Notes: generated by a model from the sequence alone, not told the origin. A stretch of 64,000 bases of DNA from an uncultured virus (IMG/VR IMGVR_UViG_3300030102_002720) (IMGVR_UViG_3300030102_002720:1-64000), one strand, 5' to 3'. Counted from the first letter of the stretch, positions 24,263-64,000 are shown. Program-made: numbers and translations.

Positions 24263-24271
24263 CCAGCTGCC

Positions 24272-25069: not shown

Positions 25070-25096
25070 TTTATTTCTCCTTATATTTTCGTTTCA

Positions 25097-25648: not shown

Positions 25649-25661
25649 ATTACTTTCTCCA

Positions 25662-25985
25662 TTAGTTTGTGTTTACCTCAACAGGATAATATTTTTTTAA
25701 ATGTCTATCCCACTTCAGCATTTTAAATCTATTACGATTCATGCTTGCTGCAACAACTGCAACAGTTGCAATAATAGAAGGATCACCAAGACACAATATG
25801 TAATCGTCATCAGAAAAGTCTTTTAATTTTTTCTTTAGTGCATGCACTACAGGTTGTGAACTAATCATCAATTGATCTTTACGAGGTAAAAGATTTTCAA
25901 ACTTACCAAATCGTAAAGCGTCTGTGATATCCACTCCAGATTTTTCTTGTACTACATATACTGTCATAGCTTTCTTATCTAACAT
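25662..25985 (-). CDS. hypothetical protein
   Basis: VYVVQE...A.RFG...DYILCLGDP...LKWDR pattern. Confidence 0.65.
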   Translation of the reverse strand: MLDKKAMTVYVVQEKSGVDITDALRFGKFENLLPRKDQLMISSQPVVHALKKKLKDFSDDDYILCLGDPSIIATVAVVAASMNRNRFKMLKWDRHLKKYYPVEVNTN

Positions 25986-31406: not shown

Positions 31407-31519
31407 AAAATACTCCTTTGTTTTAAATGGTTAGTTTGTCTTATAATTATTTACAAGATTATACAAGACATAAATGTATAAATTTTTATCTTTTTTTATG
31501 CTACTATTTACAAGGTAAA

Positions 31520-31906
31520 ATGCTACGCAAACCAGAAAGAAAATTATGGTATCTGATAAAAGAGAATACACCAGAAATATTGTGGAATAGAGTAGAAACT
31601 ACAACGATTATGGGCTTTCCTGACCTGCTTGGTTGCCACCAAAATTGTGGCTTTTTTACAGTAGAATTGAAAGTAGCAAATCGTAGCAAAATTAAGCTGT
31701 CCCCTCATCAAATTTCTTGGAATTATAATCACGCATTAAAAGGTGGTAGATGTTTTATCATAGCCACCCCCCTCGAACAGACCACCCTAGAAATCTATGG
31801 GGGAATACAGAGCATTGATATATCAAACAATATCCGTGAACCATTGGCCGTGTTTCACAAACCATTTGACTGGGGGAAGGTCGTTGAATTTCTGACACTA
31901 AACTGA
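31520..31906 (+). CDS. PD-(D/E)XK nuclease (Holliday junction resolvase / VRR-NUC-like)
   Basis: E..LW...R.E...GFPDLLG...VELKV...LSPHQISW. Confidence 0.8.
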   Translation: MLRKPERKLWYLIKENTPEILWNRVETTTIMGFPDLLGCHQNCGFFTVELKVANRSKIKLSPHQISWNYNHALKGGRCFIIATPLEQTTLEIYGGIQSIDISNNIREPLAVFHKPFDWGKVVEFLTLN

Positions 31907-31991
31907 CGCAAAAGGGGACACTAAACTGACGCAAGATCCACGAAGCAGGGACACTAAACTGACGCAAACTTTTCAAGCTTCGACACTAAAC
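31894..31991 (+). repeat. direct repeats GACACTAAACTGACGCAA (3 exact copies + 1 partial)
   Basis: Exact 18-mers at 31894, 31917 and 31950; GACACTAAAC at 31982; degenerate copy at 33096. Confidence 0.9.
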
Positions 31992-32122
31992 ATTTGCAGA
32001 CTAGTAACGGGTAGTAACGGTTGACAAATCAGTCTTCACGGGACTTGTCGATCATCCAAAGTATGGGTTTAATAATGAAGTAATATATAACCAGGTACAA
32101 TATAAAATATTCAATATAGATC

Positions 32123-36224: not shown

Positions 36225-36443
36225 ATGGTCGAGAGTAGAGTAAAACAATTAAGAGATCTTCTTGAAGATGCTATTGCAAATGGTGATGATGATCAAATAG
36301 AAATTATTAAACAAGAATTATTTACAATCAATCCAAACTATGTAAAAGATTTTGGTCATGGAGGTTTTGTGGCTGAAATGAAACCAATGAGAATGCGTTC
36401 TGGTGGAGCAGCGAAACGTGGTTATGGAAAAGCGAGAAGATAA
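36225..36443 (+). CDS. hypothetical protein with FxxGG/MxxGG motifs
   Basis: AGGAGG RBS; lies between terL and the portal. Confidence 0.6.
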   Translation: MVESRVKQLRDLLEDAIANGDDDQIEIIKQELFTINPNYVKDFGHGGFVAEMKPMRMRSGGAAKRGYGKARR

Positions 36444-38869
36444 TGGCTGTTGATAAAAGAATTACAGGAGTTGCAAATCCTGATTTAGAAGTTGAAGATA
36501 CTATTGATGTTGAAGCAAGTGACATTGTTAAAGGCATTAATGATAATCAAGAAATAGAAGTTGAAGAAACAGAAGAAGGTGGAGCGGTTATAGACTTTGA
36601 TCCGTCATCCAGGCCTGTAGCTGCGGGATTCGCAGACAACTTAGCAGAGTTCTTAGACGATAATAAATTAGGTAAGATCGCTAGTGATATAGTTGGAGAA
36701 GTAAAAGCGGACCGTGAATCACGGCACGAGTGGGAGTCTTCATACACCAAAGGATTAGATTTATTAGGATTTAAACATCAAGAACGTACCGAGCCATTTC
36801 AAGGAGCGAGCAGTGTTACACATCCACTATTAGCAGAATCAGTTACACAGTTTCAAGCACAAGCATTTAAAGAATTATTACCACCAAGTGGTCCAGTTAA
36901 AACAACAGTCGTTGGTGCAGAGAGTCCAGAAACTTCAGCACAAGCAGATAGAGTTCAAGATTTCATGAACTATCAAATTACAGATAAGATGCAAGAGTAC
37001 ACACCAGACATGGATCAGTTACTTTTTCATTTACCACTTGCAGGTTCAGCATTTAAAAAAGTTTATTACGATTCAACAAAACAATCAGCAGTTTCAAAAT
37101 TTATTCCAAGTGAAGATTTAGTTGTCAACTATTTAGCAACAGATTTACAATCAGCGGAACGTGTTACGCATATCGTAAAGATGTCACAAAATGATTTACT
37201 CAAACAACAGGTGGCAGGATTTTATAGAGACGTAGATGTTCAAACAAGTAATGATGAAACAAACATACAGAAAAAATACAATCAACTCGAAGGAGTAGAA
37301 AAAAATTCGTACGATGATGAAGTGTATACTTTGTACGAAGTGCATTGCGATTTAGACATAGAAGGTTTCGAAGATATCGACGTTACAACAGGACAACCTA
37401 CTGGTATTAAAGTGCCATACATTGTAACAATTGATGAGGGCTCAAATAAAATATTATCTATCTACAGAAACTATCAAGAGACAGATCCCCTTAGAAAAAA
37501 AATCGAATACTTCGTTCACTACAAATTCCTTCCTGGTCTTGGTTTTTACGGTTTTGGTCTTATCCATATGCTCGGGGGTTTATCAAGAACGGCTACCTTT
37601 ACGCTCCGTCAACTTATTGATGCGGGAACACTTTCCAATTTACCAGCCGGATTCAAAGCCAAAGGTATACGAATCTCTGATGATGACAGTCCATTACAAC
37701 CAGGAGAGTTCAGAGACATAGATGCACCAAGCGGGGACTTACGTTCCGGTTTGATGCCACTACCATACAAGGGACCTGATCCAACTTTATTTAATCTTTT
37801 AGGTTTTTGTGTTGATGCTGGACAAAAATTTGCAGCAGTAGCTGACATGAAAATTTCTGAAACAAATACCAACGCACCTGTTGGTACAACTTTAGCAATG
37901 ATGGAACAAGGCGCAAAAGTTATGAGCGCTATTCACAAACGTTTACATTACGCACAGAAACATGAATTCAAATTATTAGCAAAAGTATTTGGAACTTTCT
38001 TACCACCTGAATATCCATACGCCGTAGTTGGTGGTAATCAAATGATTAAACAAACAGACTTTGATGATCGTGTTGACATCATTCCTGTTTCAGATCCAAA
38101 TATGTTTTCAATGTCACAGAGAGTGGCAATGGCTCAATTACAATTACAACTGGCACAAGCTTCACCAGAAATACATAATTTACAGGAAGCTTATCGTCGT
38201 ATGTATCAAGCATTAAACGTACAAAATATTGAAGCATTACTACCTCCTCCTCCTGAACCAAAACCAATTGATCCAGGCGTTGAAAACGCTTTAGCATTGG
38301 GATTAAAACCGCTTCGTGCTTTTGAAATACAAAATCATCAAGCACACATTGATGCACATAGAGCATTTATGTCTAGTGGACTTGTAAAATCTAACTTACA
38401 AGTGTTAGCATTATTGCAAGGTCATATTTCTGAGCACACTGCATTACTTGCAAGACAAGAAATTATGCAACAGATGGGACCACAACTACAACAATTCCAA
38501 ATGCAGATGCAAAATCCTATGATGGCGCAAAATCCACAGATGCAACAACAGATGCAGCAGGTACAACAACAGATAGAATCGCAAATTGCGGTTAGAATTG
38601 CTGAATTAACTAACGATATGGTAGCAGAAGAGCAAGATTTCCTTGAAGCACAGGGCGCAGATCAGCTAGTTGCACTACGTGAGAAGGAATTAAGTATACA
38701 AGAACAAGATGTTCAACGTAAAGTTAACGAAGGACAGGAAAAAATTGCTCTTGATAAGGCAAAATTCCAACAAAAAGAGGATTTACAGTCACAAAAAATA
38801 GATTCTATTGAAGATATTGCTGAATTACGTGCAAGAGTAGCCCTTGAAAAGATGAATAAGGACAAATAA
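36443..38869 (+). CDS. portal protein (P22-like, podovirus type)
   Basis: 808 aa downstream of terL. PFQGAS.V.HPLLAE, GSAFKKVYYD, GFYGFGL and GTLSNLPAGFK; Q-rich coiled-coil C-terminus. Confidence 0.85.
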   Translation: MAVDKRITGVANPDLEVEDTIDVEASDIVKGINDNQEIEVEETEEGGAVIDFDPSSRPVAAGFADNLAEFLDDNKLGKIASDIVGEVKADRESRHEWESSYTKGLDLLGFKHQERTEPFQGASSVTHPLLAESVTQFQAQAFKELLPPSGPVKTTVVGAESPETSAQADRVQDFMNYQITDKMQEYTPDMDQLLFHLPLAGSAFKKVYYDSTKQSAVSKFIPSEDLVVNYLATDLQSAERVTHIVKMSQNDLLKQQVAGFYRDVDVQTSNDETNIQKKYNQLEGVEKNSYDDEVYTLYEVHCDLDIEGFEDIDVTTGQPTGIKVPYIVTIDEGSNKILSIYRNYQETDPLRKKIEYFVHYKFLPGLGFYGFGLIHMLGGLSRTATFTLRQLIDAGTLSNLPAGFKAKGIRISDDDSPLQPGEFRDIDAPSGDLRSGLMPLPYKGPDPTLFNLLGFCVDAGQKFAAVADMKISETNTNAPVGTTLAMMEQGAKVMSAIHKRLHYAQKHEFKLLAKVFGTFLPPEYPYAVVGGNQMIKQTDFDDRVDIIPVSDPNMFSMSQRVAMAQLQLQLAQASPEIHNLQEAYRRMYQALNVQNIEALLPPPPEPKPIDPGVENALALGLKPLRAFEIQNHQAHIDAHRAFMSSGLVKSNLQVLALLQGHISEHTALLARQEIMQQMGPQLQQFQMQMQNPMMAQNPQMQQQMQQVQQQIESQIAVRIAELTNDMVAEEQDFLEAQGADQLVALREKELSIQEQDVQRKVNEGQEKIALDKAKFQQKEDLQSQKIDSIEDIAELRARVALEKMNKDK

Positions 38870-40553: not shown

Positions 40554-40991
40554 ATGAATATGGAAAGACTACTACAATCCGTTAAGGATCACGAAGGATA
40601 TCGCAATAAAGTATATCTAGATACCCTAGGAAAGAGAACAGTGGGAGTGGGTCACCTCTGTGTTGAAGACTTTTGGGAAGACGATAAAGAGTATGAAGAA
40701 AAGTTTTTAATGACTATACTAGAGCATGATTTACAAACTGCTATCAAAGGATCTGAAGAACTTATGCAAGAACATGGTTGTTCAGATATAGATGATTTAG
40801 CTAAAGAAATTATAGTAGAAATGGTGTTTCAGCTTGGCAAGACAGGCGTATCTAAATTCCGTAACATGTGGAAAGCTTTGTCGGAACTCAATTATGTGGG
40901 TGCAAGTTTTGAAATGCTTGACTCAAAATGGGCTAAACAAACACCCAACAGGGCCAATGGCATGGCAAATCTTATGAAAGGAATAGGCTAG
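40554..40991 (+). CDS. endolysin, T4-type lysozyme (GH24)
   Basis: HEG.R..VY.DTLG..TVGVGH (E-D-T triad); MVFQLG; EMLDSKWAKQTPNRA. Confidence 0.9.
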   Translation: MNMERLLQSVKDHEGYRNKVYLDTLGKRTVGVGHLCVEDFWEDDKEYEEKFLMTILEHDLQTAIKGSEELMQEHGCSDIDDLAKEIIVEMVFQLGKTGVSKFRNMWKALSELNYVGASFEMLDSKWAKQTPNRANGMANLMKGIG

Positions 40992-41203
40992 TGGATATTA
41001 TAAAAATTGTTGATTATACAAAAAACATAATAAAAACTAGACAAGAACAAGTTAATACAGTTATAAGCAAGGGTGTAAAAGATTTTGAAGAGTATAAATA
41101 TCTTCTTGGGAAATTACACGCTTATAACGAAATTATACAGGAACTCACGGACCTGCTAAAAAAACAGGAGCATTATGACGAAGACGACTTTACTAAAACC
41201 TAA
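40991..41203 (+). CDS. hypothetical protein
   Basis: GVKDFEEYKYLLG; precedes GroES. Confidence 0.6.
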   Translation: MDIIKIVDYTKNIIKTRQEQVNTVISKGVKDFEEYKYLLGKLHAYNEIIQELTDLLKKQEHYDEDDFTKT

Positions 41204-41597
41204 ACCAGTTAGTATCATAGATATTAACGAAAAACCCTATAAGACAAAAAAAGAAGTAGAAAAGGTTCCAGAACCTACTGGATTTAGAATTGTTTTATTT
41301 CCTTTACTTCTACAGAAGAAAACTAAAGCTGGATTACATTTAACTGATGAGACTGTTGCAGAAGCACAAGTATCTACAAATGTTTGTAAAGTTTTAAAAA
41401 TAGGACCAGACGCTTACAAAGACAAGGACAGATTTCCTAATGGTGCGTGGTGCAAAGAAGAGGATTGGGTTCTTATTACTAAATATGCAGGATCAAGAAT
41501 TCGCATTGATGGTGGAGAACTTAGAATAGTGAATGATGATGAAATACTGGCAGTCATTGATCACCCAAAAGATATATTGCCAGCGAGTTTATTTTAG
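41175..41597 (+). CDS. groES: phage co-chaperonin GroES
   Basis: P.G.RIV...KTKAGLHL...VLKIGP...KYAGSRI.IDG.ELRIVNDDEILAV. Confidence 0.88.
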   Translation: MTKTTLLKPKPVSIIDINEKPYKTKKEVEKVPEPTGFRIVLFPLLLQKKTKAGLHLTDETVAEAQVSTNVCKVLKIGPDAYKDKDRFPNGAWCKEEDWVLITKYAGSRIRIDGGELRIVNDDEILAVIDHPKDILPASLF

Positions 41598-51774: not shown

Positions 51775-52233
51775 ATGGCATTGATTATCAATGATCGTGT
51801 TAAGGAAACCACGACATCAACAGGAACGGGAACTATAAATCTTGCAGGCGCAAGCACTGGTTTTCAAACTTTTGTTGGTGCCATTGGGACTACTAATACT
51901 ACATATTACTGTATTACAATGCAGTCAGGTAGCACGGAATTTGAAGTAGGAATAGGCACTGTTACTGATGCATCTCCTGATACATTATCGAGGGACACAG
52001 TTTTAGAGAGCTCAAATAGTGATAATAAAGTAGATTTTTCTGCAGGCACTAAAGATGTTTTTTGTACGTATCCAGCAAAGAGGGCGCCATCTCCCAGCAT
52101 GGATCCTACATCTTATGTAACTACACACAATGCTACTATTAGTGATACTCAAACTATGGACTCTGGTGTTTTAGCTGGTCCTGTTACAGTTACAGGATCA
52201 TTAACAATTACAGGTAACTTGTTTATATTATGA
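51775..52233 (+). CDS. tail fibre base/attachment protein
   Basis: DRVKET..TGTG...EVGIGT...LSRDTVL.SSN...F.AGTKDVF.TYPA. Confidence 0.6.
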   Translation: MALIINDRVKETTTSTGTGTINLAGASTGFQTFVGAIGTTNTTYYCITMQSGSTEFEVGIGTVTDASPDTLSRDTVLESSNSDNKVDFSAGTKDVFCTYPAKRAPSPSMDPTSYVTTHNATISDTQTMDSGVLAGPVTVTGSLTITGNLFIL

Positions 52234-53102
52234 GTCAGATTGAAGTAGATAAGGTCATACCACAGTCAGGTACAGCTCTTCAAGTTGGAGAAAATGGGGA
52301 CACGATCACATTGCCTGCAGGAACCACGTTAAATGTAGCAAACGCTACTTTAACTTTACCTACAACACTACCTGCAACATCAGGTGCAAACATTACAAAT
52401 CTTAATGGTTCACAAGTAACTACAGGCACTGTTGCTAATGCAAGATTAACTGGTTCAGGAGCAATTACGATAAATGGTTCAGCAGTTGCTTTAGGAGGAT
52501 CTATTACTTTAGTTACAGAAGTAAGACCTACTTTTTCTTCAGTAACTCCAAGTGTAATAACTAATGCACAAACGACAGTTACAATAGCTGGCACAAATTT
52601 TGTATCTGTTCCTTTAGTAACAGCAATTCATTCTTCGACAGGAGCACAAATAGTTGCGGATGAAGTATCTTTTACTTCAGCAACTAGCATTACAGCTAAA
52701 TTTACAATTAGTGTTGATGGTACTTATAAATTATATATTGAAAATCCAGATGGTAATGCAGTTCAAACAGGAGCTGTATTAACAGTTTCTGATGTTCCTT
52801 CATGGGTAACTTCAGCAGGATCTTTAGGATCTTTTAGTGCAGGAGCTAATGTAGGAACTATTACAGTTACAGCCACTGATGCTACTTCTTTTGCAATTAC
52901 ATCAGGTGCTTTACCTGGCGGATTGTCTTTAAATTCTGGTTCAGGTTCTGCTACAATAACAGGAACAGAATCAGGTGCAACTTCAACTACTACTTATAAC
53001 TTTACTATTACAGCTACTGATGCTCAAGGTCAGACAGCAGCAAGAGCTTTTAGTATGGAAATATCTGTGGGATTTGCTAATAGTTTAAGGTTTTCAGGAT
53101 AA
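52230..53102 (+). CDS. Ig-like (IPT + He_PIG-type) tail stalk protein, cassette A
   Basis: PT.SSVTP...TIAGTNF, ENPDG, SGALPGGLSL and YNFTITATD. Confidence 0.7.
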   Translation: MSQIEVDKVIPQSGTALQVGENGDTITLPAGTTLNVANATLTLPTTLPATSGANITNLNGSQVTTGTVANARLTGSGAITINGSAVALGGSITLVTEVRPTFSSVTPSVITNAQTTVTIAGTNFVSVPLVTAIHSSTGAQIVADEVSFTSATSITAKFTISVDGTYKLYIENPDGNAVQTGAVLTVSDVPSWVTSAGSLGSFSAGANVGTITVTATDATSFAITSGALPGGLSLNSGSGSATITGTESGATSTTTYNFTITATDAQGQTAARAFSMEISVGFANSLRFSG

Positions 53103-53111
53103 GGATTAATT

Positions 53112-54488
53112 ATGTCAACATATTTAGATAAAACATTTTCAGGTAACGGTAACGGTAAAAAATGGACGTTTAGTGCATGGTTAAAATCTGTTGATATTTA
53201 TGATGAAGATCATATTTTTTCTGCGTACATTAACGCTGGTGATAGTGATTTTATTCGTTTCGATAGTAATAGAAGAATGTCAATAAAAATTGGTGGTAAT
53301 ATTGTATTAACTACGTCAAGAAAATATCAAGATAAAAACTCTTGGTATCACATAGTTGTAGCATTTGATTCAACGCAAGCAACTGGAACTAACAGATTAA
53401 AAATATACACAAATGGAGTAGAAGAAACTGCATTTGCTGCTGATACTAGATCAAGTCAAATAGCACAAAACACAAGTTATTATTTTGGTTGGGGTGTAAA
53501 GCACACTGTGGGAACACGTGCTCACTCTGTAACTGATAGTCCTTTTAGAGGTAACATGACTCATGTAAATTTTACTGACGGTTATGTTTATACACCAACA
53601 AACTTTGGGCAAACAAATACACAAACGGGAGAATGGTCTACAAAAGGAACTACAGGTGTTACTTATGGCACTAATGGCTTTTATTTTAAATTTGAAAATT
53701 CTGGTAATTTAGGCTTAGACTCTAGTGGAGCTGGTAATAATTTTACTACTAACAATTTAGGCGATATACCTCAAAGCACAGATGTGCCTTCTAATAATTT
53801 TCCAATTTTAATTACAGCTCAAGATCCTCAAAGTGCTAGAGTTGTATTAGGTAATGCTGCTTTAGATGCTCAATTCAACGGCAATGGTAGTACAAGTGCA
53901 AGATTAATGGGTAACATGCCAATATGTTCAATCCCTGTATCAAAGGGAAAGTGGTACTGTGAAGCAAGACTAACAAGAAGCGCAAATGAAGCTTTTGTTG
54001 GTATAACAAATGTATCTTACAATAGAGATACGTCTGAACAAGATACATATTGTGCTGTTTATACACACTCTGGTCAAATTTATTACGATGATGGTAGTAG
54101 TGAATCTCAAATTACATATGGAAGTGGTTTTAGTTCAAATGATTATATTGGCATTGCTTTAGATGCTGACAATAAAAGAGTTTATTGGAGCAAAAATGGT
54201 CAATGGGCAGATGGCTCTGGAAACTTTGATGAATCAAGTCCAAATGCTTATCAACAATACACTGATAATTTTATTAATTACGAATCAGCAGATAGAGAAA
54301 GTGTGGTTTTTGCTTTTTTTGGAGCAGGTAGTAGCACTACTCCACGATTTTCAGTCAACTTTGGATGTCCAATGGATGGAAGTCCTTCAGGTTCAAATGA
54401 TGATGCAAACGGTCATGGAAATTTTCAATATGCAGTGCCATCAGGGTACTATGCATTATGTACTAAAAATTTAAATACATACGGATAA
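53112..54488 (+). CDS. LamG/ConA-like + SPRY protein, cassette A
   Basis: WTFSAW, WYHIVV, YGTNGF, GKWYCE and YYALCTKNL. Confidence 0.75.
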   Translation: MSTYLDKTFSGNGNGKKWTFSAWLKSVDIYDEDHIFSAYINAGDSDFIRFDSNRRMSIKIGGNIVLTTSRKYQDKNSWYHIVVAFDSTQATGTNRLKIYTNGVEETAFAADTRSSQIAQNTSYYFGWGVKHTVGTRAHSVTDSPFRGNMTHVNFTDGYVYTPTNFGQTNTQTGEWSTKGTTGVTYGTNGFYFKFENSGNLGLDSSGAGNNFTTNNLGDIPQSTDVPSNNFPILITAQDPQSARVVLGNAALDAQFNGNGSTSARLMGNMPICSIPVSKGKWYCEARLTRSANEAFVGITNVSYNRDTSEQDTYCAVYTHSGQIYYDDGSSESQITYGSGFSSNDYIGIALDADNKRVYWSKNGQWADGSGNFDESSPNAYQQYTDNFINYESADRESVVFAFFGAGSSTTPRFSVNFGCPMDGSPSGSNDDANGHGNFQYAVPSGYYALCTKNLNTYG

Positions 54489-54489
54489 T

Positions 54490-55554
54490 ATGGCATACAC
54501 AACAATAAACGATCCATCTGCATATTTTCAAACATTACTTTATGCGGGTAATGCATCTCAAACTGCTTTGACAAATACAGGTAACTCTAATTTACAACCA
54601 GATTTTATTTGGATACAAAACAGAACTTCGAGCAGTCATTACAATGCTTTGCAAGATGTCAATAGAGGTATAGACAAAATTTTAAGTACTCAAGTTGCAA
54701 GTGCAGAAGTTGACACTTCTGAACAAGTAAAGTCTGTTCAATCTGATGGGTTTACTGTTGGTGATAACAGTGACAGTCAAAATTATGTAAACTTAAATTC
54801 AAACAATTATTGTGCATGGCAATGGAAAATGAATGGTAGTGCATCAACAAACAATGATGGAAGTATTGCTTCATCTGTAAATGCAAGTACAACTGCTGGT
54901 CAAAGTATAATAACTTGGACTGGTACAGGAAGTAATGGAACAATAGGACACGGTTTGGGTGTTGCTCCTATGATGTTTTGGATTAAACGTAGAGATACTG
55001 GTTCTACAAACTGGCGTGTTTACAATAGAATGTTAGGAGGTGCTACAAAATTTCTTGAAATGAATGGTAGTGGCGGTGAACAAACAAGTTCTACAATTTT
55101 CAATAGTGCACATCCCACATCTTCTGTTATTAATCTTGGTACCAGCGGGGACACAAACGGAAATGGTGGCACATATGTTTGTCATGCTTTTGCACCTGTA
55201 AAAGGATATAGTAAAATGGGTATGTACATGGGTAATGATTCTAGTGATGGAAGTAGAGTTTTTACTGGATTTAAACCTGCGTTTCTTCTAATTAAATGTT
55301 CATCTCATACTGAACCATGGTTTATAGTTGACTCAGTTAGATCACCTAGAAACCAAACAGAAGCAGCTTTACGACCTGATGCAACTGCAGCTGAAAATGG
55401 CTCTTCAGGATATTCAATAAATTTATTAAGTGATGGTTTTAAATGTGTTGATGGAGCAGGAAATGCAAATGGCGCTGGAAAAGCTTATATTTATTTAGCT
55501 TTTGCCGAGCACCCTTATGTTGCAGGAAATGACATCATTGCATTAGCGAGGTAG
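54490..55554 (+). CDS. 'MAYTTINDPS' family tail protein, cassette A
   Basis: Paralog of 1001..2089. Confidence 0.7.
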   Translation: MAYTTINDPSAYFQTLLYAGNASQTALTNTGNSNLQPDFIWIQNRTSSSHYNALQDVNRGIDKILSTQVASAEVDTSEQVKSVQSDGFTVGDNSDSQNYVNLNSNNYCAWQWKMNGSASTNNDGSIASSVNASTTAGQSIITWTGTGSNGTIGHGLGVAPMMFWIKRRDTGSTNWRVYNRMLGGATKFLEMNGSGGEQTSSTIFNSAHPTSSVINLGTSGDTNGNGGTYVCHAFAPVKGYSKMGMYMGNDSSDGSRVFTGFKPAFLLIKCSSHTEPWFIVDSVRSPRNQTEAALRPDATAAENGSSGYSINLLSDGFKCVDGAGNANGAGKAYIYLAFAEHPYVAGNDIIALAR

Positions 55555-55555
55555 A

Positions 55556-56362
55556 ATGACATCAGAGATTAAAGTAAACACGATCAAGAAAAATGATGGA
55601 TCGACAATCACGATTGGTGAAAGTGGTGATACAGTAACTATCACACCAGGTATTACAGCAGCCTCATTAACATCAGGCACTGTGCCAACAGCTCGTTTAT
55701 CTGCCGTTCCTAATTCGTCATTAGCAAACTCTGCAATTACAATAAATGGTTCGGCTGTTTCACTTGGTGGATCGGTAACAGTTGGAGAAACAAAACCAAC
55801 AATATCATCTATCAGCCCGACAGTAATTACAAACGATGCAACTAACGTAACTATTAATGGATCAAATTTTGTTTCTGTTCCTATTGTTGAAGCAATAAAT
55901 TCAACAGGTGTTATAACATCAGCAAACTCAATAACTTTTACAAGTGCATCTCAATTAGTTGCAAATTTTACATTAGGTACTGATGGTACGTATTTTATAA
56001 GAATAGAGAACAATGATGGTAATGCTGTTCGTAGTGGCAGTGCTATACTAACTGTGTCTGATGTTCCTGCTTGGACCACGGCTGCAGGAAGTTTAGGAAC
56101 TGTAGATGCCGCAGGCAGTATAAGTTTTACAGTTGCAGCAACTGACGCCACTTCTTACGCTGTTACTTCTGGTTCTATGCCAGGAGGAGCTAGTTTAAAT
56201 GCAAGCACAGGTGCTATTACTGGAACAGAATCTGGTTCTACTGCAACAACTACATATAACTTCACTATCACTGCAACTGATGCACAAGGACAAACTGCTG
56301 CGAGAGCCTTTTCAATTACGGTAAATCACGGTATAAGTAACTCAGTAAGGATGGATCCATAA
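55556..56362 (+). CDS. Ig-like tail stalk protein, cassette B
   Basis: Paralog of 52230 (ITINGSAVSLGGS, SNFVSVP, YNFTITATDAQGQTAARAFS). Confidence 0.7.
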   Translation: MTSEIKVNTIKKNDGSTITIGESGDTVTITPGITAASLTSGTVPTARLSAVPNSSLANSAITINGSAVSLGGSVTVGETKPTISSISPTVITNDATNVTINGSNFVSVPIVEAINSTGVITSANSITFTSASQLVANFTLGTDGTYFIRIENNDGNAVRSGSAILTVSDVPAWTTAAGSLGTVDAAGSISFTVAATDATSYAVTSGSMPGGASLNASTGAITGTESGSTATTTYNFTITATDAQGQTAARAFSITVNHGISNSVRMDP

Positions 56363-57699
56363 TGGGATATATGCACAGATCAGTTTCAGGTACAGTTACC
56401 ACTTTCACAATATCTATGTGGACAAAGTTATGTGGTCTTAATTATATCGATTCTTTATGGGGATCTGGTAGTGGTTATGGTTTATTTATTAACTCCACTC
56501 GTCCTATAAAAATGCAGGGTGGAAGTCCTGTTACAAGTACAAGATTGTTTAGAGATACAAATGGTTGGTATCACGTTGTATATAAATGCAGTGGTGGTAG
56601 TGCTACAACATATATAAACGGAGAGTCAGTCATAACACACTCAGGTGTTTCTATAAGCTCAGACATTGCAATAGGCGCTTTGAATAGTTCTGGTGGTGAT
56701 TCAACTAAGTCTTCAATATATTTTGCAGATGTAATTTTTGTTGATGGCACTGCTCATAACCCAACTTCTTTTGCAGAAACTGATTCATCTACTGGCGAAT
56801 GGAAACCTAAATCATATTCAGGATCATACGGAACAAATGGTTTTAAACTTGAATTTAAAAATTCAGGTGCATTAGGCACAGATACTAGCGGTAATGGAAA
56901 TAATTTAACAGTTTCTGGTAGCAATACTCAAATGGTTTCTTCTCCAACAAATACATTTGCAACTATAGATAGATTAAATGGTAATCCTACTTTAAATGAT
57001 AGTAGTGCTGGTGGCGTTGTTGATGGTTTAAGATATGGTAACTTAGAAGTAAATGCTAACGCAGGAGCAGTTGGTAATGATAACTATATGTGGAGTCCTT
57101 CAAATATGATGGTTACAAAAGGTAAATGGTATGCTGAATTTAGACTTACAGGTGCTTTTTCAACCACAGGTGATGCAGCTCATTTAGTTGGAGTTGGCAG
57201 TGGTGACTACCCATATAAAGCAGATAATAGAAGCACTGCTATTGGAGGATTTACAACATATTGGATAGATCATCCTGATGATCGTATCTTAGTTGATGGT
57301 AATGTTTCAAACACAGCTGTAACAGGAGGTAGTAAGTTTGTGCAAAATGATATTCTAGGTGTTTACTTAAATTGTGATACAACAATTCCACAAGTTACAT
57401 TTACAAAAAATGGAGCAGCTTTATCTGGTGCATCTAACTCACCTTACAATGTAAGACGGACTGGTGCTTATGGTGATAGAGATAATGCTCCCATAGCTTT
57501 TTTCACAGTTATCAAATATGGAACTACTTCTGGAACTGGCTGGGGAAAAATACAAGCTAATTTTGGTGAACCATTATACACTGTTAGCTCATCAAATGCA
57601 GACGCAAATGGCCATGGAAGTTTTGAATATAGCCCACAATTAGGTGGAGTTAATTATTATGCACTTTGCACAAAAAATTTAAACGAGTTTGGAGGATAG
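56362..57699 (+). CDS. LamG/ConA-like + SPRY protein, cassette B
   Basis: WYHVV, YGTNGF, GKWYAEF and YYALCTKNL. Confidence 0.75.
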   Translation: MGYMHRSVSGTVTTFTISMWTKLCGLNYIDSLWGSGSGYGLFINSTRPIKMQGGSPVTSTRLFRDTNGWYHVVYKCSGGSATTYINGESVITHSGVSISSDIAIGALNSSGGDSTKSSIYFADVIFVDGTAHNPTSFAETDSSTGEWKPKSYSGSYGTNGFKLEFKNSGALGTDTSGNGNNLTVSGSNTQMVSSPTNTFATIDRLNGNPTLNDSSAGGVVDGLRYGNLEVNANAGAVGNDNYMWSPSNMMVTKGKWYAEFRLTGAFSTTGDAAHLVGVGSGDYPYKADNRSTAIGGFTTYWIDHPDDRILVDGNVSNTAVTGGSKFVQNDILGVYLNCDTTIPQVTFTKNGAALSGASNSPYNVRRTGAYGDRDNAPIAFFTVIKYGTTSGTGWGKIQANFGEPLYTVSSSNADANGHGSFEYSPQLGGVNYYALCTKNLNEFGG

Positions 57700-57700
57700 T

Positions 57701-59191
57701 ATGGCTTTTAGTACCACAAATGACCCATCGGCATATTTTCAACAATTAACTTACACTGGTAATGGAAGTGCTTCTTCTCGATCTTTAGTAAATACTGGTA
57801 ATTCAAATTTGCGACCAGATTGGTTATGGATAAAAGTTAGGTCTACCACTGATAACCACATGGCTTTAGATTCAGTAAGAGGCAATGATAAACAATTAAA
57901 AATTAATGAAAATCACGCTGAGGATACAACTTCTCATTTAGCAAGTTTTAATACAGATGGTTTTAATTTAACAAGCACTGATCAAGCATATAATGCAAAC
58001 TCTGCTTCTTATGTAGCATGGCAATGGGCTGCGGGCGGTGCATCACCTACTAAAACGTATAAAGTAGTTGTTGTTTCTGATAGCGGTAATAAATATAGAT
58101 TTAGAAATTCTAGTGACACAACAACATTTGCACAAAGTGCAGTAACTTTAGATTTACAAGAAGGGGGTACTTATACCTTTGATGTATCTGATAACACTGT
58201 TGATAGTCATCCTTTTGTAATTGGAACTTCCGCAAACAGTAATGAATATAGCACTGGAGTAGTTTATAAATTAGATGGTGTTACAAAAACTTATTCTCAA
58301 TATACTTCAGGGTTTTCTGCGGCAACTACAAGGCAATTAATTATTACTGTAGCTGCTTCAGCACCTACTTTGTATTATTGGTGTAGTGTACACTCAGGTA
58401 TGGGTGGACAAATAAATACAAATTCTACTTTTGGCTCTACTAATTTTGATGGTAGTAGGTTAACAAACGTAAGTGTAAACACAGCTTCTGGATTTTCAAT
58501 CTTTACATATACTTCTGGTAATGGTGATTATTCTTATGGTCATGGATTAGGTCAAAAACCAAGAGCATTTATCGTTAAAGATAGAGCTTCAACTGGTAAC
58601 TGGAGAGTATTTATTCAAGGATCACAACGAGGTAGTTCTTATGGAAATCTTCAAGCAGGTGGTAAATTAAATCACGATGGCGTATTTGATCAAGGTGCAA
58701 ACTCTTTATGGAATGGAGGATCATTTACAGATACAACTGATTCAGTTCTTTATATGGGAACAAGCACCGACACAGGCGGTGGAACTAATGCTAAAGTTTG
58801 TTATGCTTTTGCAGAAAAACAAGGATTTAGTAAGTTTGGAAACTATCAAGGCACAGGTGCTGCGGATGGTAATTTTATTTACTGTGGTTTTAAACCTCAA
58901 TGGGTAATGGTAAAAAAGACATATGGCGGAAGTCACTCTTGGCAAATACAATTTTCATCAGGAAATCCTACATCTGATGGCACAACAGGTGGCAACCCTG
59001 TAGCTAAAACATTATTAGCTAACACAAATGGTGCGGAAGCATCAGAAAATGCAATGGATTTTTGTGCAACTGGTTTCAAAATTAGAACAACTGGTAATGG
59101 TCATAATACAAATGGTGATTATTATTCTTACATGGCTTTTGCAAAGCAGCCACTTGTAGCAACTAACGATGTAATAGCAACGGCGAGATAA
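57701..59191 (+). CDS. 'MAYTTINDPS' family tail protein, cassette B, with an inserted H...CxxHxxM domain
   Basis: GGAGG RBS; paralog carrying a ~125-aa insertion with SHPF and YYWCSVHSGMGG. Confidence 0.7.
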   Translation: MAFSTTNDPSAYFQQLTYTGNGSASSRSLVNTGNSNLRPDWLWIKVRSTTDNHMALDSVRGNDKQLKINENHAEDTTSHLASFNTDGFNLTSTDQAYNANSASYVAWQWAAGGASPTKTYKVVVVSDSGNKYRFRNSSDTTTFAQSAVTLDLQEGGTYTFDVSDNTVDSHPFVIGTSANSNEYSTGVVYKLDGVTKTYSQYTSGFSAATTRQLIITVAASAPTLYYWCSVHSGMGGQINTNSTFGSTNFDGSRLTNVSVNTASGFSIFTYTSGNGDYSYGHGLGQKPRAFIVKDRASTGNWRVFIQGSQRGSSYGNLQAGGKLNHDGVFDQGANSLWNGGSFTDTTDSVLYMGTSTDTGGGTNAKVCYAFAEKQGFSKFGNYQGTGAADGNFIYCGFKPQWVMVKKTYGGSHSWQIQFSSGNPTSDGTTGGNPVAKTLLANTNGAEASENAMDFCATGFKIRTTGNGHNTNGDYYSYMAFAKQPLVATNDVIATAR

Positions 59192-60033
59192 TGTCAGAAA
59201 TCAAAGTTAATGCCATAAAAAAACGTAACGGTAGTTCGATCACTATTGGTGAATCGGGTGATACTATTACGATAACAGGTGGCGCAGCTTTATCTGGTTC
59301 TGGTGCATCTCTTACAGCTTTAAATGGTAGTAATGTTGCATCTGGAACTGTAGCAAATGCTCGTCTAGTAGGTAGTGGTTCAATAACAATAAATGGATCA
59401 GCAGTAGCTCTTGGTGGTTCTGTTACTATTGGAGAAACAAAACCGACAATTACTGGTGTAACACCAAGCACAATAGATAATACAGCAACTAACGTTGTCA
59501 TAGCTGGTACAAACTTTGTATCGGTCCCGCAAGTAGAAGCTATTTCTTCTACGGGAGCTATTACAGCAGCCAATACTGTAACATTTACAAGCGCTACATC
59601 TATTACGGCTAATTTTACACTGGCAACAGATGGTGTTTATTTTATTCGTGTAGAAAATAATGATGGTAATGCGGTAAGATCTGGTGCAATATTAACAGTA
59701 TCTGATGCACCGACATGGACTACAGGAGCTGGTTCTCTTGGAACTATCGCAGGTAATTTTTCGGGTACGGTTGCAACAGTGGCAGCTACTGGAGACAGCA
59801 CTTTAGCTTTTTCAGAAACAACAAATGTTTTAACAAATGCAGGACAAGCAAATTGCTCGCTAAATTCAAGCACAGGTGTTATAACTACTACTGATTTTGG
59901 TGGATCGTCAACATCTGCTACAACGTATAACTTTACGCTTCGTGTCACTGATGCAGAAGGTCAGACAGCAGATCGTGCCTTTTCACTAACATCTAGTTTT
60001 GCACTAGAAGATTCAGGAAGGTTTGATGGCTGA
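59191..60033 (+). CDS. Ig-like tail stalk protein, cassette C
   Basis: Paralog of 52230 and 55556. Confidence 0.7.
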   Translation: MSEIKVNAIKKRNGSSITIGESGDTITITGGAALSGSGASLTALNGSNVASGTVANARLVGSGSITINGSAVALGGSVTIGETKPTITGVTPSTIDNTATNVVIAGTNFVSVPQVEAISSTGAITAANTVTFTSATSITANFTLATDGVYFIRVENNDGNAVRSGAILTVSDAPTWTTGAGSLGTIAGNFSGTVATVAATGDSTLAFSETTNVLTNAGQANCSLNSSTGVITTTDFGGSSTSATTYNFTLRVTDAEGQTADRAFSLTSSFALEDSGRFDG

Positions 60034-61420
60034 TACATATTTAACAAAAACATTTGCAAGTGCAGGCAACAGAAAAACGTTTACTTTTTCTGTTTGGTTA
60101 AAACAAGCATTTGGACTTACGTCAGGCAATAGTGTCATATTTAGTGCTGGCTCTGCTAGTAATACTTATTGTCAAATTAGAATGAAAAATGCAAATAACT
60201 ATATCCAATTTGAAGATGAGCAAGGAGGTTCTGTAACAGCAACTCCTTATACAGATGCTTGGTTTAGAGATCCAACTGCTTGGAATCATCTTGTCGTAAG
60301 AGTAGATTCAACACAAAGCACTGCTGCTGACCGAGTAAGAATGTATATGAACGGCACTCAATTAACTATGAGTGGAGGAACTCAACCAGGTCAAAACCAA
60401 GATTTTATAATCAACAACAATACTGGTCATGCTTTAGGAACGTTATGGAGAGGTAGTGATTCTGGAGGACATTGGAGCGGACACATGGCACAAGCTATAT
60501 TCTGTGATGGTCAATCTTTAGCTCCAACATCTTTCGGGTCAACTAATTCAGATGGTGTTTGGATTCCTAATTCTGGTCCATCAGTTACTTACGGAACTAA
60601 TGGTTTTAAAATTGATTTTAAGGGAACTGGGGCAAGTGCTGACACTAGTGGTTTTGGTGCTGACAGCAGTGGTAACAGTAATCATTTTGCAACTACAAAC
60701 ATAGGAACAAATCCATCGTCAAAAGATTCTCCAGAAAATAATTTTGCTACTTGGAATGCTCTTGGAAGTAATGCTTCTTCTATAACAGAAGGTGGTCTTA
60801 GAATGGTAGGCGATACAGGAACTAGTTATAGTTTAGGAGCTTGTTCTTCGATAGCTTTTCAAAAAGGTAAATGGTATGCAGAATTTAAAGTAGGTACATT
60901 TGACAATAACTATATAGGATTGTGTAAACAAGGTAATATGCAGTCAAAAGACGCAGATTATCAGTATCAACTAGGTCAATTATTTTACAAAAGTAATGGA
61001 AATAAAGCATCGGGAGATGGAGCAGGAAATTTTGGTGCTGACACTTCTTATGGTGCTAGTTACACTTCAGGAGACATCATAGGAGTAGCTGCAGACATGG
61101 ATAATCTCAAATTATATTTTTCTAAAAACGGAACTTTTCAAGACTCAGGCAATCCTTCTTCTGGTTCTACAGGAACGGGAGCTGCTTTTACTAGTTCTAC
61201 AATAAGTGGAGCGGCAGGCAGTGATATAAAAGCAGATACATTTTACAGTTTTTTCTCTGCAGGATACAACGATGGAATATGTCAAGCTAATTTTGGTAAT
61301 CCATCTTTTACAATTAGCTCTAGTAATGCTGACGCAAATGGATATGGTAGTTTTGAGTATGCAGTGCCGTCAGGGTACTATGCTCTTTGTACAAAAAATT
61401 TAGCACAATACGGAGGGTAA
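60026..61420 (+). CDS. LamG/ConA-like + SPRY protein, cassette C
   Basis: Its 3' two-thirds are nearly identical to 2..997. Confidence 0.75.
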   Translation: MADTYLTKTFASAGNRKTFTFSVWLKQAFGLTSGNSVIFSAGSASNTYCQIRMKNANNYIQFEDEQGGSVTATPYTDAWFRDPTAWNHLVVRVDSTQSTAADRVRMYMNGTQLTMSGGTQPGQNQDFIINNNTGHALGTLWRGSDSGGHWSGHMAQAIFCDGQSLAPTSFGSTNSDGVWIPNSGPSVTYGTNGFKIDFKGTGASADTSGFGADSSGNSNHFATTNIGTNPSSKDSPENNFATWNALGSNASSITEGGLRMVGDTGTSYSLGACSSIAFQKGKWYAEFKVGTFDNNYIGLCKQGNMQSKDADYQYQLGQLFYKSNGNKASGDGAGNFGADTSYGASYTSGDIIGVAADMDNLKLYFSKNGTFQDSGNPSSGSTGTGAAFTSSTISGAAGSDIKADTFYSFFSAGYNDGICQANFGNPSFTISSSNADANGYGSFEYAVPSGYYALCTKNLAQYGG

Positions 61421-62522
61421 CGTGGCAGTATATACATCAATAAATGATCCATCAGTACATTTTCAAAACACACTTTATGTCGGTAATGGTAGTAATGCTC
61501 AAGACATAACAAACACAGGTAATGTTAATTTACAGCCAGATTTACTTTGGATTAAAAACAGAAGTTCAAATTCAAATACAATTTGGCAAGATTCAAGTAG
61601 AGGAATAAACAAACAGTTTTTTACTGACACCAACAATAGTGAATATACTGATGGTAACTGGGGACACGTTAACAGTGTTGCAACAGATGGTTTTCAAGTT
61701 GATGTAGGTAATAATACTTCTGAAGCAAATGCAAATAAAAATAGTGATAATTACATAGCATGGCAATGGAAAGGTAATGGTGGAACAAGTGCTAGCAATA
61801 GTAATGGCTCCATAACTTCTAGTGTTCAAGTTAATACAGCAGCAGGATTTAGCACTATTCTCTATACAGCTACTGGCTCTAATGCAACAATAGGACATGG
61901 ATTATCACAAACGCCTGAACTTATAATAACTAAAGGTCGATCTGATAATCACTCTTGGATTGTTGGATGTACTCACGACAGTTCAGATTTGAGTAAAGTT
62001 TTTGTTATGAATGCTAATGATGCTAGTGTTACAGCTACAGGTAATTATCGAGGTATAGCACCAACAAGCACTGTATATTCAATTGGAACTTCTGGAGGAA
62101 ACAACAGCACAGGTGGTGGTGGTTTATATGTTGCTTATGCTTTTCACTCAGTGCAGGGTTATAGTAATTTTGGTACCTATAAAGGTAATGGCGATGCAGA
62201 TGGTCCATTTGTCTATACAGGTTTTAAACCTGCTTTTGTTTTAGTCAAAAGAACAGACAGCACTGGAAACTGGTACGTTTATGACACAGAAAGAAATGGT
62301 GCTAGTGGTCCTAACACTAACCAAGCACATAGAATTTTATATGCAAATGATGCTTCAAGTGAAATTAATAATGTTGACAGAGGTATTGATATGGTTGCTA
62401 ATGGTTTTAAAATAAGAAATACTTTAGGTGACACAAATAACTCTAGTGGAACTTACATGTATTGGTCTTTTGCATCTAGTCCTTTTGTATCATCAGCAGG
62501 CATACCAACAACAGCGAGATAA
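60391..62522 (+). repeat. long imperfect direct repeat, copy 2
   Basis: Aligns with 1..2089 up to the shared ...acaacagcgagataa stop, then diverges abruptly. Confidence 0.95.
61422..62522 (+). CDS. 'MAYTTINDPS' family tail protein, cassette C
   Basis: N- and C-terminal thirds are nearly identical to 1001..2089; the middle third differs. Confidence 0.7.
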   Translation: MAVYTSINDPSVHFQNTLYVGNGSNAQDITNTGNVNLQPDLLWIKNRSSNSNTIWQDSSRGINKQFFTDTNNSEYTDGNWGHVNSVATDGFQVDVGNNTSEANANKNSDNYIAWQWKGNGGTSASNSNGSITSSVQVNTAAGFSTILYTATGSNATIGHGLSQTPELIITKGRSDNHSWIVGCTHDSSDLSKVFVMNANDASVTATGNYRGIAPTSTVYSIGTSGGNNSTGGGGLYVAYAFHSVQGYSNFGTYKGNGDADGPFVYTGFKPAFVLVKRTDSTGNWYVYDTERNGASGPNTNQAHRILYANDASSEINNVDRGIDMVANGFKIRNTLGDTNNSSGTYMYWSFASSPFVSSAGIPTTAR

Positions 62523-62524
62523 AA

Positions 62525-64000
62525 ATGGGAATATTTGATAATATAAAAAACGTCTTCTCTACTAAAAAAGTAGTTAAAGAAATTAAGCAAAGTCCAATAA
62601 CTATGTTTAGTAATATAAACTATGCACAAGGACAAAAGTATAACTATGATGAGTTAGTAAAAGAAGGGTATGAAAATAATGCTATTGCTTTTAGATGTAT
62701 AAATGAAATATCACAAGGTGCTGCTGGAGTAAAATTAAAATTATTTAGAGGTAAGTTAACTGTTGATGACCATCCTATATTAGACTTACTTGAAAGACCA
62801 TCTCCGACCAAAGGTTATGTTGAGCTTTTTGAATCTTTATATTCTTTCTTATTACTTTCTGGTAATAGTTATTTGATTGGCTCTGGTGGTGAAGGACCAC
62901 CAAAAGAATTATATTGTTTAAGACCTGACAGAGTTAAAATAGTTCCAGGACAAATGAGCTTACCATTAAGTTATGATTATACAATAAATGGTAAAGTAGT
63001 TTCTCAATATGAGGTAGACCAAACAACAGGTGAATCTGCAGTAAAACATTTTAAATTATTTCATCCTAAACATGACCATTTAGGATTATCACCATTAGTT
63101 TCAGCTGCAACTAATATTGATAGTCATAATTTAACTAATATTCATAATGTATCATTATTACAAAATGGAGCTAGACCTAGTGGTGCTGTTATATTTAAAC
63201 CTAAAGATGAAACTGGATCTAGTGTTCAGCTATCAGATTCACAAAGAGCACAAATTATAAAAGATATGGAAAGTCGTTTTGCTGGTACAGGTAATGCTGG
63301 AAGACCTATGTTGTTAGAGGGTGATTTTAGTTTTCAACAAATGGGTATGTCACCTAAAGATATGGATTTTTCAGTATTGAAAAAGATGTCAGCAATAGAT
63401 ATAGCATTATGTTTTGGTGTTCCTGCACAGTTAGTAGGTATTCCTGATGCACAAACTTATAACAATATGCCAGAAGCAAGACTTGCACTTTATGAAGAAA
63501 CAATTATACCTATATTAAGAAGAATACAATCTGATTTGAATGAGTGGCTAACTCCTAAATTTGGTGATGGCTTACGATTAGAGTATGATATTGATAGCAT
63601 ACCAGCTATGGCTGAGAGTCGTAAAAGAGTATTTGAATCAGTAGTAAGTGGAGTAAATGCAGGTATTTTAACTAGAAATGAAGCTAGAGAGAAACTTGGT
63701 TTTGATCCAATAAAAGGAGGAGATGCTTTATTTATACCAGCAACTATGATGCCAATAGGACTTATGGGTGAGAGTGTAGATGAAGATGAAGACGAGAAAA
63801 ATTTAGAACTAACTGATGATTATCCAGTACAGGATGATATAGAGGAGAATGATATGCCAAAATTAAATAAAGCTATTGATTTAAAACCAACTGATTCAAT
63901 GGCAAATGAAGCAAGAAAAGGATTAGAGTGGAGAAGAGAGTTTGGTCGTGGTGGCACTATGGTTGGAGTAGCAAGAGCAAGACAACTAGCAAACAGACAA
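62525..64000 (+). CDS. HK97-family portal protein with C-terminal extension (3'-partial)
   Basis: Manual translation, open to the window end: EGYENNAIAFRCI, HPILDLLERP, LLLSGNSY, LRPDRV, GLSPL, NGARPSG, NAGRPMLLEG, SPKDMDF, FGVPAQLVG, TYNN and LTRNEARE. Confidence 0.9.
   Translation, partial: MGIFDNIKNVFSTKKVVKEIKQSPITMFSNINYAQGQKYNYDELVKEGYENNAIAFRCINEISQGAAGVKLKLFRGKLTVDDHPILDLLERPSPTKGYVELFESLYSFLLLSGNSYLIGSGGEGPPKELYCLRPDRVKIVPGQMSLPLSYDYTINGKVVSQYEVDQTTGESAVKHFKLFHPKHDHLGLSPLVSAATNIDSHNLTNIHNVSLLQNGARPSGAVIFKPKDETGSSVQLSDSQRAQIIKDMESRFAGTGNAGRPMLLEGDFSFQQMGMSPKDMDFSVLKKMSAIDIALCFGVPAQLVGIPDAQTYNNMPEARLALYEETIIPILRRIQSDLNEWLTPKFGDGLRLEYDIDSIPAMAESRKRVFESVVSGVNAGILTRNEAREKLGFDPIKGGDALFIPATMMPIGLMGESVDEDEDEKNLELTDDYPVQDDIEENDMPKLNKAIDLKPTDSMANEARKGLEWRREFGRGGTMVGVARARQLANRQ

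Follow-up and report, generated by a model that had tools for sequence, protein, structure and literature searches.

A marine phage scaffold with two portal genes is probably a pelagiphage-type podovirus genome that runs on into a siphovirus via a shared tail-fibre cassette

The IMG/VR record IMGVR_UViG_3300030102_002720 from an uncultured virus is a linear scaffold of 68,438 nt rated 100% complete, whose bases 1-64000 constitute the stretch of DNA analysed here (64,000 nt, referred to as the window). A segment at its very beginning (1-2089), which encodes tail-fibre genes, recurs towards its end (60391-62522), where it directly precedes a second portal gene unrelated to the one located at 36443. 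We assign a probability of roughly 0.8 to the explanation that the record is a wrap-around chimera, in which the complete genome of a podovirus, designated X (2093-60390 plus 1-2089), runs on into an unrelated siphovirus, designated Y (62525-68438 plus sequence upstream), and that it is not a hybrid genome. Podovirus and siphovirus do have fibre cassettes in common, and this sharing is recent; both phages evidently swap such cassettes in nature. In the following, G001, G003 and G004 denote related IMG/VR virus records and L-numbers denote loci of related contigs.

The first-pass annotation of this DNA, made from the sequence alone, had described 60391-62522 as a near-identical repeat of 1-2089. 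The homology as such stands, since blastn aligns both copies in blocks of 88.6%, 85.4% and 89.7% identity (E = 0 to 1e-143). The copies are, however, related rather than near-identical because an end-to-end alignment reveals identity in 1701 of 2138 columns (79.6%), because the encoded proteins agree to 84.8% (B' versus B3) and 69.9% (C' versus C3) and because identity drops in the core of the C gene at about 1350-1750, where the copies are unrelated. In 100-nt windows it amounts to 39-70% over this core and to 39-53% over about 1400-1700. The sole near-exact portion of the repeat comprises bases 1-144, which equal 60391-60534 save for one mismatch (33 plus 110 exact bases). As had been stated, similarity stops in both copies at the TAA stop codon of gene C. 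Copy 1 reads ...GCGAGATAA ACC ATG and continues from 2093 into podovirus-like tail and virion genes, whereas copy 2 reads ...GCGAGATAA AA ATG and is followed after 2 nt by an open reading frame (ORF) of 660 codons for an HK97-family portal (PF04860, E 9e-76); both continuations had been recognised correctly at first pass, as had the presence of the second, unrelated portal. The start of the repeat coincides with the first base of the record, and the repeat forms the final unit of a tandem array of three cassettes, each consisting of genes A, B and C, which extends from 52230 to 62522 and had escaped notice at first pass.

The proposal that the unit of about 60.4 kb represents one genome is borne out both by its portal and by the gene order of its relatives. 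Between 2093 and 60390, X encodes virion and ejection proteins, a DNA polymerase, a helicase and a primase on the minus strand, the small and the large terminase (the latter at 34765-36216, plus strand; phrog_38, E 1.2e-113) as well as portal, capsid and tail genes. The 808-aa portal (36443-38869, plus strand) is 52% identical at the amino acid level to those of the Pelagibacter phages HTVC023P and HTVC027P over 92-94% of its length, and the four phage records matching it best have sizes of 57.6-61.5 kb. Its identity as a portal rests on phrog_1216 (E 1.9e-49). The designation "P22-like", which had been given to it initially, is unsupported, as it finds no Pfam match at E <= 0.01 and no significant match among PDB sequences, the best portal row having an E value of 0.78. 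The spacing of the repeat yields a unit of 60,390 nt, which contains three cassettes and agrees with the size of HTVC023P-type genomes as given in a passage of PMC9599517 (58,776 +/- 2,523, n = 82), unlike the 68,438 nt of the whole record.

The right-hand edge of the cassette array in HTVC023P-type relatives is marked by g282, the first podovirus gene past the array (2093-2941, plus strand), relatives of which are encoded at 33 IMG/VR loci. In L076/L077, L086 and L098/L099, about 8.5-8.8 kb of cassettes separate homologues of 50.7-52.3 kb from g282 downstream, and in L104 g282 lies directly 3' of an A3-B-C cassette. The complete podovirus-type relative G003 (61,865 nt) ends with ...A2-B-C2-like-A3 and starts with A3-B-C-g282. 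Since the order in these relatives, G003 included, runs from tail genes via cassettes to g282, X comprises 2093-60390 plus 1-2089 and contains three cassettes. Judged from its sequence, this unit most likely constitutes a complete, circularly permuted HTVC023P-type pelagiphage podovirus. Bases 1-2089 make up a fourth B-C pair of the record, truncated at its first base, and joining 60023-60390 to 1-997 creates an open frame of 454 codons. We therefore read B' as the putative third B gene of the podovirus itself, with its 5' end at 60023-60390. HTVC023P and HTVC027P resemble X in the order of replication, terminase, portal, capsid and tail genes, the unit of X lies within the 58.8 +/- 2.5 kb of the type, and HTVC023P harbours, at the position matching the cassettes of X, a run of 440-490-aa genes (gp59-62). 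Neither isolate, however, possesses an HK97 portal or a tail-tube/tape-measure module. Going by the hosts of these isolates alone, SAR11 (Pelagibacter) would be the host of X; homologues occur also in single cells of other phyla, as mentioned in a passage of 10.1101/2019.12.14.876532.

The portal of Y (660 aa; 62525-64507 of the record, shown in the window up to 64000; plus strand) matches the Pfam family Phage_portal (PF04860) with 255.5 bits at a cut-off of 39.1, its residues 55-392 corresponding to profile positions 3-321 of 321. It is followed by genes for a gp6-like adaptor, a head closure protein, an HK97 gp10-like neck protein, a tail terminator, a tail tube, a chaperone and a tape measure, the last of which is cut by the end of the record. 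No terminase or capsid gene of this second set is present in the 68,438-nt record. The position of a fibre cassette just upstream of a portal had at first appeared odd. It turns out, instead, to be a conserved fibre locus of this siphovirus lineage. Relatives of the Y portal are found at 58 IMG/VR loci, 19 of which (L013-L031) encode a portal at least 77% identical to it. At 10 of these 19 (L013-17, 19, 20, 22, 23 and 31) a C-type gene ends a few bases before the portal ATG, while at three (L021, L027 and L028, with about 1-6.5 kb of upstream sequence) no A, B or C match is detected there, L021 having other fibre-like genes upstream of its portal; at the remaining loci the upstream sequence is too short to judge. 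As a C-type gene lies directly upstream in 10 related loci, the C-to-portal junction is native to Y and not made by assembly.

Two of these records are informative in this respect. L022, an independent contig of 4068 nt from another metagenome, carries A3(3')-B3-C3-portal and equals 59602-63669 at 99.73% with 11 mismatches, four of them within 59602-60534; its C3-portal junction is 99-100% identical to that of the window. G001 (locus L013), a siphovirus record of 22,097 nt (CheckV completeness 48%, with siphovirus records of 22-24 kb being rated 48-57% complete), is from the portal ATG onward 98.9% identical in nucleotides to 62525-68438, while identity drops to only about 43% in the C gene preceding it. 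Since G001 and the window thus differ right up to the start codon of the portal, the C3-portal junction could not have been created by a k-mer assembler alone. Beyond the region it has in common with the record, G001 continues with tape measure, distal tail, J-like fibre and lysis genes as well as its own helicase and primase. In L023 the gene order is terminase, gp7-like, protease, capsid, small genes, fibres, A-B-C and portal, after which the genes from adaptor to tape measure, distal tail and J-like fibre follow. In G004 some 10.7 kb separate a capsid gene (83% identical) from the portal gene downstream of it on the same strand, and A-B-C directly precedes the portal. With the lysis, helicase and primase genes of G001 and the terminase, protease and capsid genes located upstream in L023 and G004, Y is an autonomous, uncultured phage, and the fibre locus upstream of its portal is a conserved, derived feature of the siphovirus lineage. 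Compared to HK97-type siphovirus modules such as those of Roseobacter phage CRP-701 and of the more distant IMG/VR relative L036, Y retains the genes from PF04860 portal to tape measure in canonical order. Its portal gene, however, does not adjoin the terminase, as seen from the layouts of L023 and G004, whereas L036, whose portal is 55% identical, keeps the order terminase, portal, 122-aa ORF, gp7-like, protease and capsid. We would like to note that the C-terminal domain of the Y portal (about 205 aa) shares 64% identity with the N-terminal part of the "major capsid protein" (875 aa) annotated in CRP-701 and that this extra domain appears as the separate 122-aa ORF in L036; a match to DUF5824 is below threshold.

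With both genomes delineated, the question is whether they are joined in nature. The first-pass annotation had left open whether the record is a chimera or a recombinant; we favour the chimera, the bridge probably being a stretch of about 0.9 kb and not the whole 2.1-kb repeat. The first base of the record is precisely its site of re-entry (1 = 60391), which would be accounted for by the assembler having left by the Y branch rather than closing the circle. The record is, moreover, a scaffold, with a gap of 10 N at 65606-65615. Sequencing depths were taken from k=31 Logan contigs of public runs (X1, X2, X3, X5 and X20), in which all look-alike strains are summed and among which the source sample possibly is to be found; runs X1 and X3 stem from one study, and one of them may be this sample. 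In the comparison of the latter two, which was limited to contigs with 0-2 differences, run X1 gives a depth of 13.2-16.3 on cassettes 1 and 2 of X versus 5.8-7.5 on Y, and run X3 8.7-11.5 on X versus 4.9-5.3 on Y. Over 59226-60455 the summed depth rises to 46-64, compared to 13-14 and 6-7.5 on the flanks of the common stretch, as is expected for sequence common to several genomes. Both runs have loose ends at 59637, which implies a branch within A3. In run X5 three Y pieces of 110-627 nt show 0-2 differences and one of 387 nt shows eight, and in run X20 Y pieces of 439-904 nt show 1-3 differences; most X pieces of these two runs differ by about 1-5% (6 to 77 differences), so that the Y pieces listed are mostly nearer. 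X occurs without Y in L072-L104 and G003, and Y without X in G001 and L014-L031. The only record which crosses the junction, L022, holds no X-specific sequence, and among the IMG/VR relatives of the portal, g282 and C' there is no independent record linking X-specific to Y-specific sequence.

These data have to be held against the possibility that the scaffold is correct and represents a natural HTVC023P-type recombinant of more than 68 kb, with four cassettes and two portals, which acquired a siphovirus portal-to-tail module after its third cassette. In its favour, the scaffold is continuous without any N over 1-65605, both lineages demonstrably recombine at the cassette edges, and runs X1 and X2 contain 0.90 and 0.85 of the words of 58001-68000. 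Yet a genome of at least 68.4 kb would exceed the mean size of the type by about 3.8 standard deviations, and its Y part would lack terminase and capsid genes of its own and end inside the tape-measure gene. The two-fold depth gap in two runs, the independent divergence of X and Y in runs X5 and X20, the lack of any other record joining X-specific to Y-specific sequence and the re-entry of the record start at 60391 argue in the same direction, and we regard such a hybrid as improbable. Fifteen further runs hold a share of 0.42-0.46 of the words of 58001-68000, which, to go by runs X5 and X20, probably reflects the Y part only.

Contigs of the wrap-around or concatemer type which exceed one genome unit are a known artefact of metagenome assembly, of the kind CheckV warns about. 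As in these, an internal stretch of the present record recurs at its start one genome length off and the record is oversized. Moreover, two more records of the type of X possess imperfect end overlaps. The end of G003 overlaps its own start over 428 nt at 92%. A 75,632-nt IMG/VR record (L090, L098) contains two g282 homologues of different length about 61.2-61.5 kb apart, depending on whether the g282 positions or the realignment site of its first base is taken, its overlapping ends being 71-96% alike in blocks (83-90% in the long ones); this HTVC023P-type record is probably another wrap-around, into a related strain. What distinguishes the present case is that the second pass leaves the range of strain variants and exits, via the common fibre cassette, into a phage of another morphotype, which is why the record gains a second, unrelated portal. 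The switch most likely took place within 59602-60534 (plus strand), i.e. in the stretch apparently common to both phages which runs from the 3' part of A3 into the start of B, since L022 and the scaffold differ there at only four positions; its exact point we infer. The joints listed for the Logan contigs, e.g. 55280 to 62398, have sides of 18-31 nt. We rejected these joints as genuine structure, as they reflect the conserved 3' motif of the C genes.

Several observations weigh against the chimera. No read pair, long read or independent contig was found which closes the circle of X (60390 to 1), and nothing was found that shows Y's own sequence upstream of 59602. A search with the C' protein in IMG/VR returned only L022, a 237-nt end fragment (L110) and relatives of at most 53% identity. 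Among metagenome contigs, a 35-mer specific to B' has 0 matches, and the best 80 of at least 582 relatives of the B' protein are all at most 50% identical, a closing contig not being among them. A contig containing all six letters diagnostic of B' was placed on B3, with a depth of 25.8-32, for which reason depth within the B3-C3 cassette is uninterpretable. Furthermore, the two-fold lower depth of Y would also fit a minority X strain which truly carries Y as well. The distance from the scaffold start to the point of divergence presumably matches no standard assembler k, and the agreement of L022 with the scaffold starts 35 nt before the loose ends at 59637. A 41-mer from the common stretch occurs in IMG/VR only in the contig of L022, and the 25-nt consensus of the loose ends upstream of 59637 matches none of the loci compared here at up to five mismatches, bar one chance-level match in HTVC023P.

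If the record is indeed a wrap-around chimera, the following sequence of events may be envisaged. X carries three tandem A-B-C cassettes between its tail genes and g282, and in Y an A-B-C cassette is native to the interval from capsid to portal. The local strain of Y would hold a cassette of the X type, in which identity to X is about 99.6% over the 3' portion of A3 and the beginning of B, and 85-90% over the remainder of B and C. Going round the circle of X, the assembler would have met this common stretch, taken the Y branch and left the circle unclosed, the scaffold then continuing by mistake through some 8 kb of Y (roughly 60535 to 68438). The cassette itself may have reached Y from an X-type phage via homologous recombination at conserved edges during co-infection.

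The exchange which this scenario presupposes is documented by the cassettes themselves. The first-pass annotation had postulated a second phage lineage with a very recently exchanged copy of the cassette upstream of an HK97-family portal. A related cassette does occupy this place, the copies being 80-90% alike and not near-identical. In a tree of the C genes (27 rows, four identical duplicates dropped), C3, which stands in Y context, is the sister of C' in X context (support 82/78), and the two fall within a clade whose other C genes are podovirus-linked (support 93/96); over the tree, the context label changes nine times compared to a minimum of two. A3 of the window is 94% identical at the amino acid level to A3 of the podovirus G003 versus 56-61% to the A3-like genes of siphovirus relatives. 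Together with G001, these comparisons reveal that the relatedness of the cassettes is out of step with that of the backbones. Break points cluster at the stop codon of C. Thus, similarity breaks in G001 at the portal ATG, in L072 43 nt before the stop codon and in L110 at the stop codon, and identity to L013, L072 and L110 starts or stops 0-45 nt from it. The 45-nt block at the 3' end of the C genes, ...CCTTTTGT.TC.TCAGC.GG..TACC.ACAACAGCGAGATAA, which the line-up of the junctions places at 62478-62522 and at 2045-2089 (plus strand), is present in both podovirus and siphovirus contexts and appears to be the right-hand boundary of cassette exchange. We infer homologous recombination at the conserved cassette edges during co-infection. 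For the cassette of the window, transfer from podovirus to siphovirus is tentatively suggested.

A different explanation of the two copies would take them as paralogous cassettes of one lineage, the segment with the HK97-type portal belonging to the podovirus lineage and no transfer across lineages having taken place. It can draw on the replication block of G001, in which helicase, primase, phrog_2402, phrog_2378 and a small ORF share order and strand with block 21164-25985 of X, and on a lysozyme of G001 that is 73% identical to that of X (40554-40991). Owing to this common layout and the lysozyme, the X and Y lineages do share more than their fibres. The replication proteins, however, are merely 28-40% identical, in contrast to the 85-90% DNA identity of B3/C3 to B'/C', and the head and tail modules are unrelated, a phrog_1216 portal without tail tube and tape measure standing against a PF04860 portal with both. 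Likewise, paralogy would hardly explain why A3 is at most 61% identical to its counterparts in other siphovirus relatives and 94% to that of a podovirus relative, or why the backbone of G001 is 98.9% identical to that of Y while its C gene is only about 43% identical. We consider this explanation very improbable.

To a more comprehensive view we would give somewhat better than even odds. According to it, an uncultured siphovirus lineage which is abundant in the sea and has genomes of about 43-46 kb, a replication block laid out like that of HTVC023P-type phages and a portal moved downstream of a hypervariable capsid-portal fibre locus, trades whole A-B-C receptor-binding cassettes with HTVC023P-type podoviruses at conserved edges, and has done so recently enough for backbones 98.9% identical to carry unrelated cassettes. 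Fibre mosaicism is known among coliphages. Modular evolution of phages goes back to Botstein (1980), as cited in a passage of PMC9599517. In common with mosaic exchange of fibres and receptor-binding proteins between unrelated phages, the present cassettes have conserved edges, variable cores and breaks at gene boundaries, and the C tree mixes podovirus and siphovirus contexts. They differ in that the unit is a three-gene A-B-C cassette which is tandemly triplicated in the podovirus, and in that the siphovirus cassette is inserted between capsid and portal genes and not past the tail genes. The sharing of a three-gene cassette across morphotypes and the relocated siphovirus portal are real, modestly novel variants of known phage mosaicism.

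For interpreting metagenomic records, this means that the present entry, though rated 100% complete, most likely joins a complete genome to 8 kb of another phage. As imperfect wrap-around is seen in this record and in two others, any tally of "two-portal" or oversized genomes in the very abundant group of X needs to be checked against reads. The assembler could be misled only because podovirus and siphovirus, present in the same water, possess cassettes with about 99.6% identity over 0.9 kb and 85-90% over the remainder. HTVC023P-type phages are described as the most abundant known group of marine viruses in a passage of Zhang et al. (10.1101/2019.12.14.876532), and Wittmers et al. (2022; PMC9599517) report metabolic gene clusters transferred across families in this phage type. 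Within the main text of the latter, as far as its retrieved text extends, the terms "tail fiber" and "portal" occur 0 times each; the passages of the former concerned do not treat fibre cassettes, its two mentions of "tail fiber" relating to other matters. A literature search on tail fibers of pelagiphages and siphoviruses yielded nothing on cassette exchange among the titles listed. Through cassettes swapped across morphotypes, unrelated phages infecting dominant marine bacteria would be linked to one another in host range, and concrete, testable recombination boundaries would be obtained. If the comprehensive view given above is true, the host range of the most abundant ocean phages is set by a pool of cassettes common to both morphotypes.

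The array itself, all genes of which are on the plus strand, is composed as follows. Cassette 1 consists of A1 (52230-53102), B1 (53112-54488) and C1 (54490-55554), and cassette 2 of A2 (55556-56362), B2 (56362-57699) and C2 (57689-59191). Both were delimited by repeat families (D5-D12) and by matches to phrog_27411, phrog_19943 and phrog_24898, and are matched by the Logan contigs of run X1 at the above-mentioned depth with 0 differences. The third cassette begins with A3 of the podovirus type (59191-60033) and proceeds to B3 (60023-61420; phrog_27411, E 1.4e-82), the B gene linked to the HK97 portal, whose protein is 100% identical to that of L022, and to C3 (61422-62522) directly upstream of this portal. 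At the beginning of the record, B' (1-997; phrog_27411, E 1.3e-56), a fibre-cassette protein with an SPRY-like domain which is cut at its 5' end by base 1, is followed by C' (1001-2089), a DUF7483-type tail fibre (phrog_24898 "tail fiber protein", E 1.1e-78), and then by g282. A genes encode about 270-290 aa, with tail-fibre PHROG matches that are weak and confined to A2. B genes encode about 445-465 aa and belong to phrog_27411, their SPRY match being below threshold. At least 582 marine metagenome contigs encode B-type proteins, so that the B family is very widespread and, with the best 80 of them all at most 50% identical to B', very diverse.

The C genes encode 354-500 aa, and C', C1, C2 and C3 all match phrog_24898. 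C3 covers PF24299 (DUF7483) from position 1 to 330 of 330 (E 2.7e-96; 323 bits, cut-off 27). An AlphaFold model of C3, calculated from 19 homologues, is all-beta with a pLDDT of 85.9. Foldseek finds no PDB match for it at E <= 0.001, and VIA-align yields as top values Z 6.6 for the gp53 fibre of phage AP22 and Z 5.5 for the R2 pyocin fibre, all under the level of Z 8 that this tool treats as meaningful. As PDB matches are weak, the receptor-binding role of the C genes is predicted from family names and position and not from the fold. Within the pair C'/C3, the central third (1350-1750 versus 61780-62180) displays the low identity described above, while its flanks are 86-99% identical. This third could be a swapped or fast-diversifying core and is possibly the region which contacts the receptor.

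Base composition was rejected as a means of separating the two parts, as the GC content is 33.0% over 62525-68438 versus 35-38% elsewhere, with tetranucleotide correlations of 0.88-0.93. We also rejected Maricaulis as host of Y. The sole match in a cellular genome is the 22,097-nt siphovirus contig described above, placed in a metagenome-assembled genome titled Maricaulis sp.; the Y part has a GC content of 33%, while that of Maricaulis is high, and the contig, probably a binning error, provides no evidence of the host. The single host of both phages to which the cassette sharing had been taken to point at first pass is conjectural. A frameshift in the head-closure gene of Y was likewise dismissed. 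This gene seems to be cut (84 versus 117 aa) as a consequence of a scaffold gap of 10 N at 65606-65615 of the record, past the window, which stands in for 6 nt of G001.

Three minor features of X may finally be mentioned. It encodes a 2OG-Fe(II) oxygenase (phrog_81; 7718-8410, minus strand) and a GroES-like co-chaperonin (phrog_3188; 41175-41597, plus strand), each of which has a counterpart in the annotation of HTVC023P. At 31869-31968 two direct repeats of 44 nt, 56 nt apart and 73% alike, share the motif ACACTAAACTGACGCAAA. They span the 3' end of an ORF at 31427-31906 and the adjoining stretch, no ORF of at least 80 aa being present in 31907-32122, and could represent a regulatory or origin-like element.

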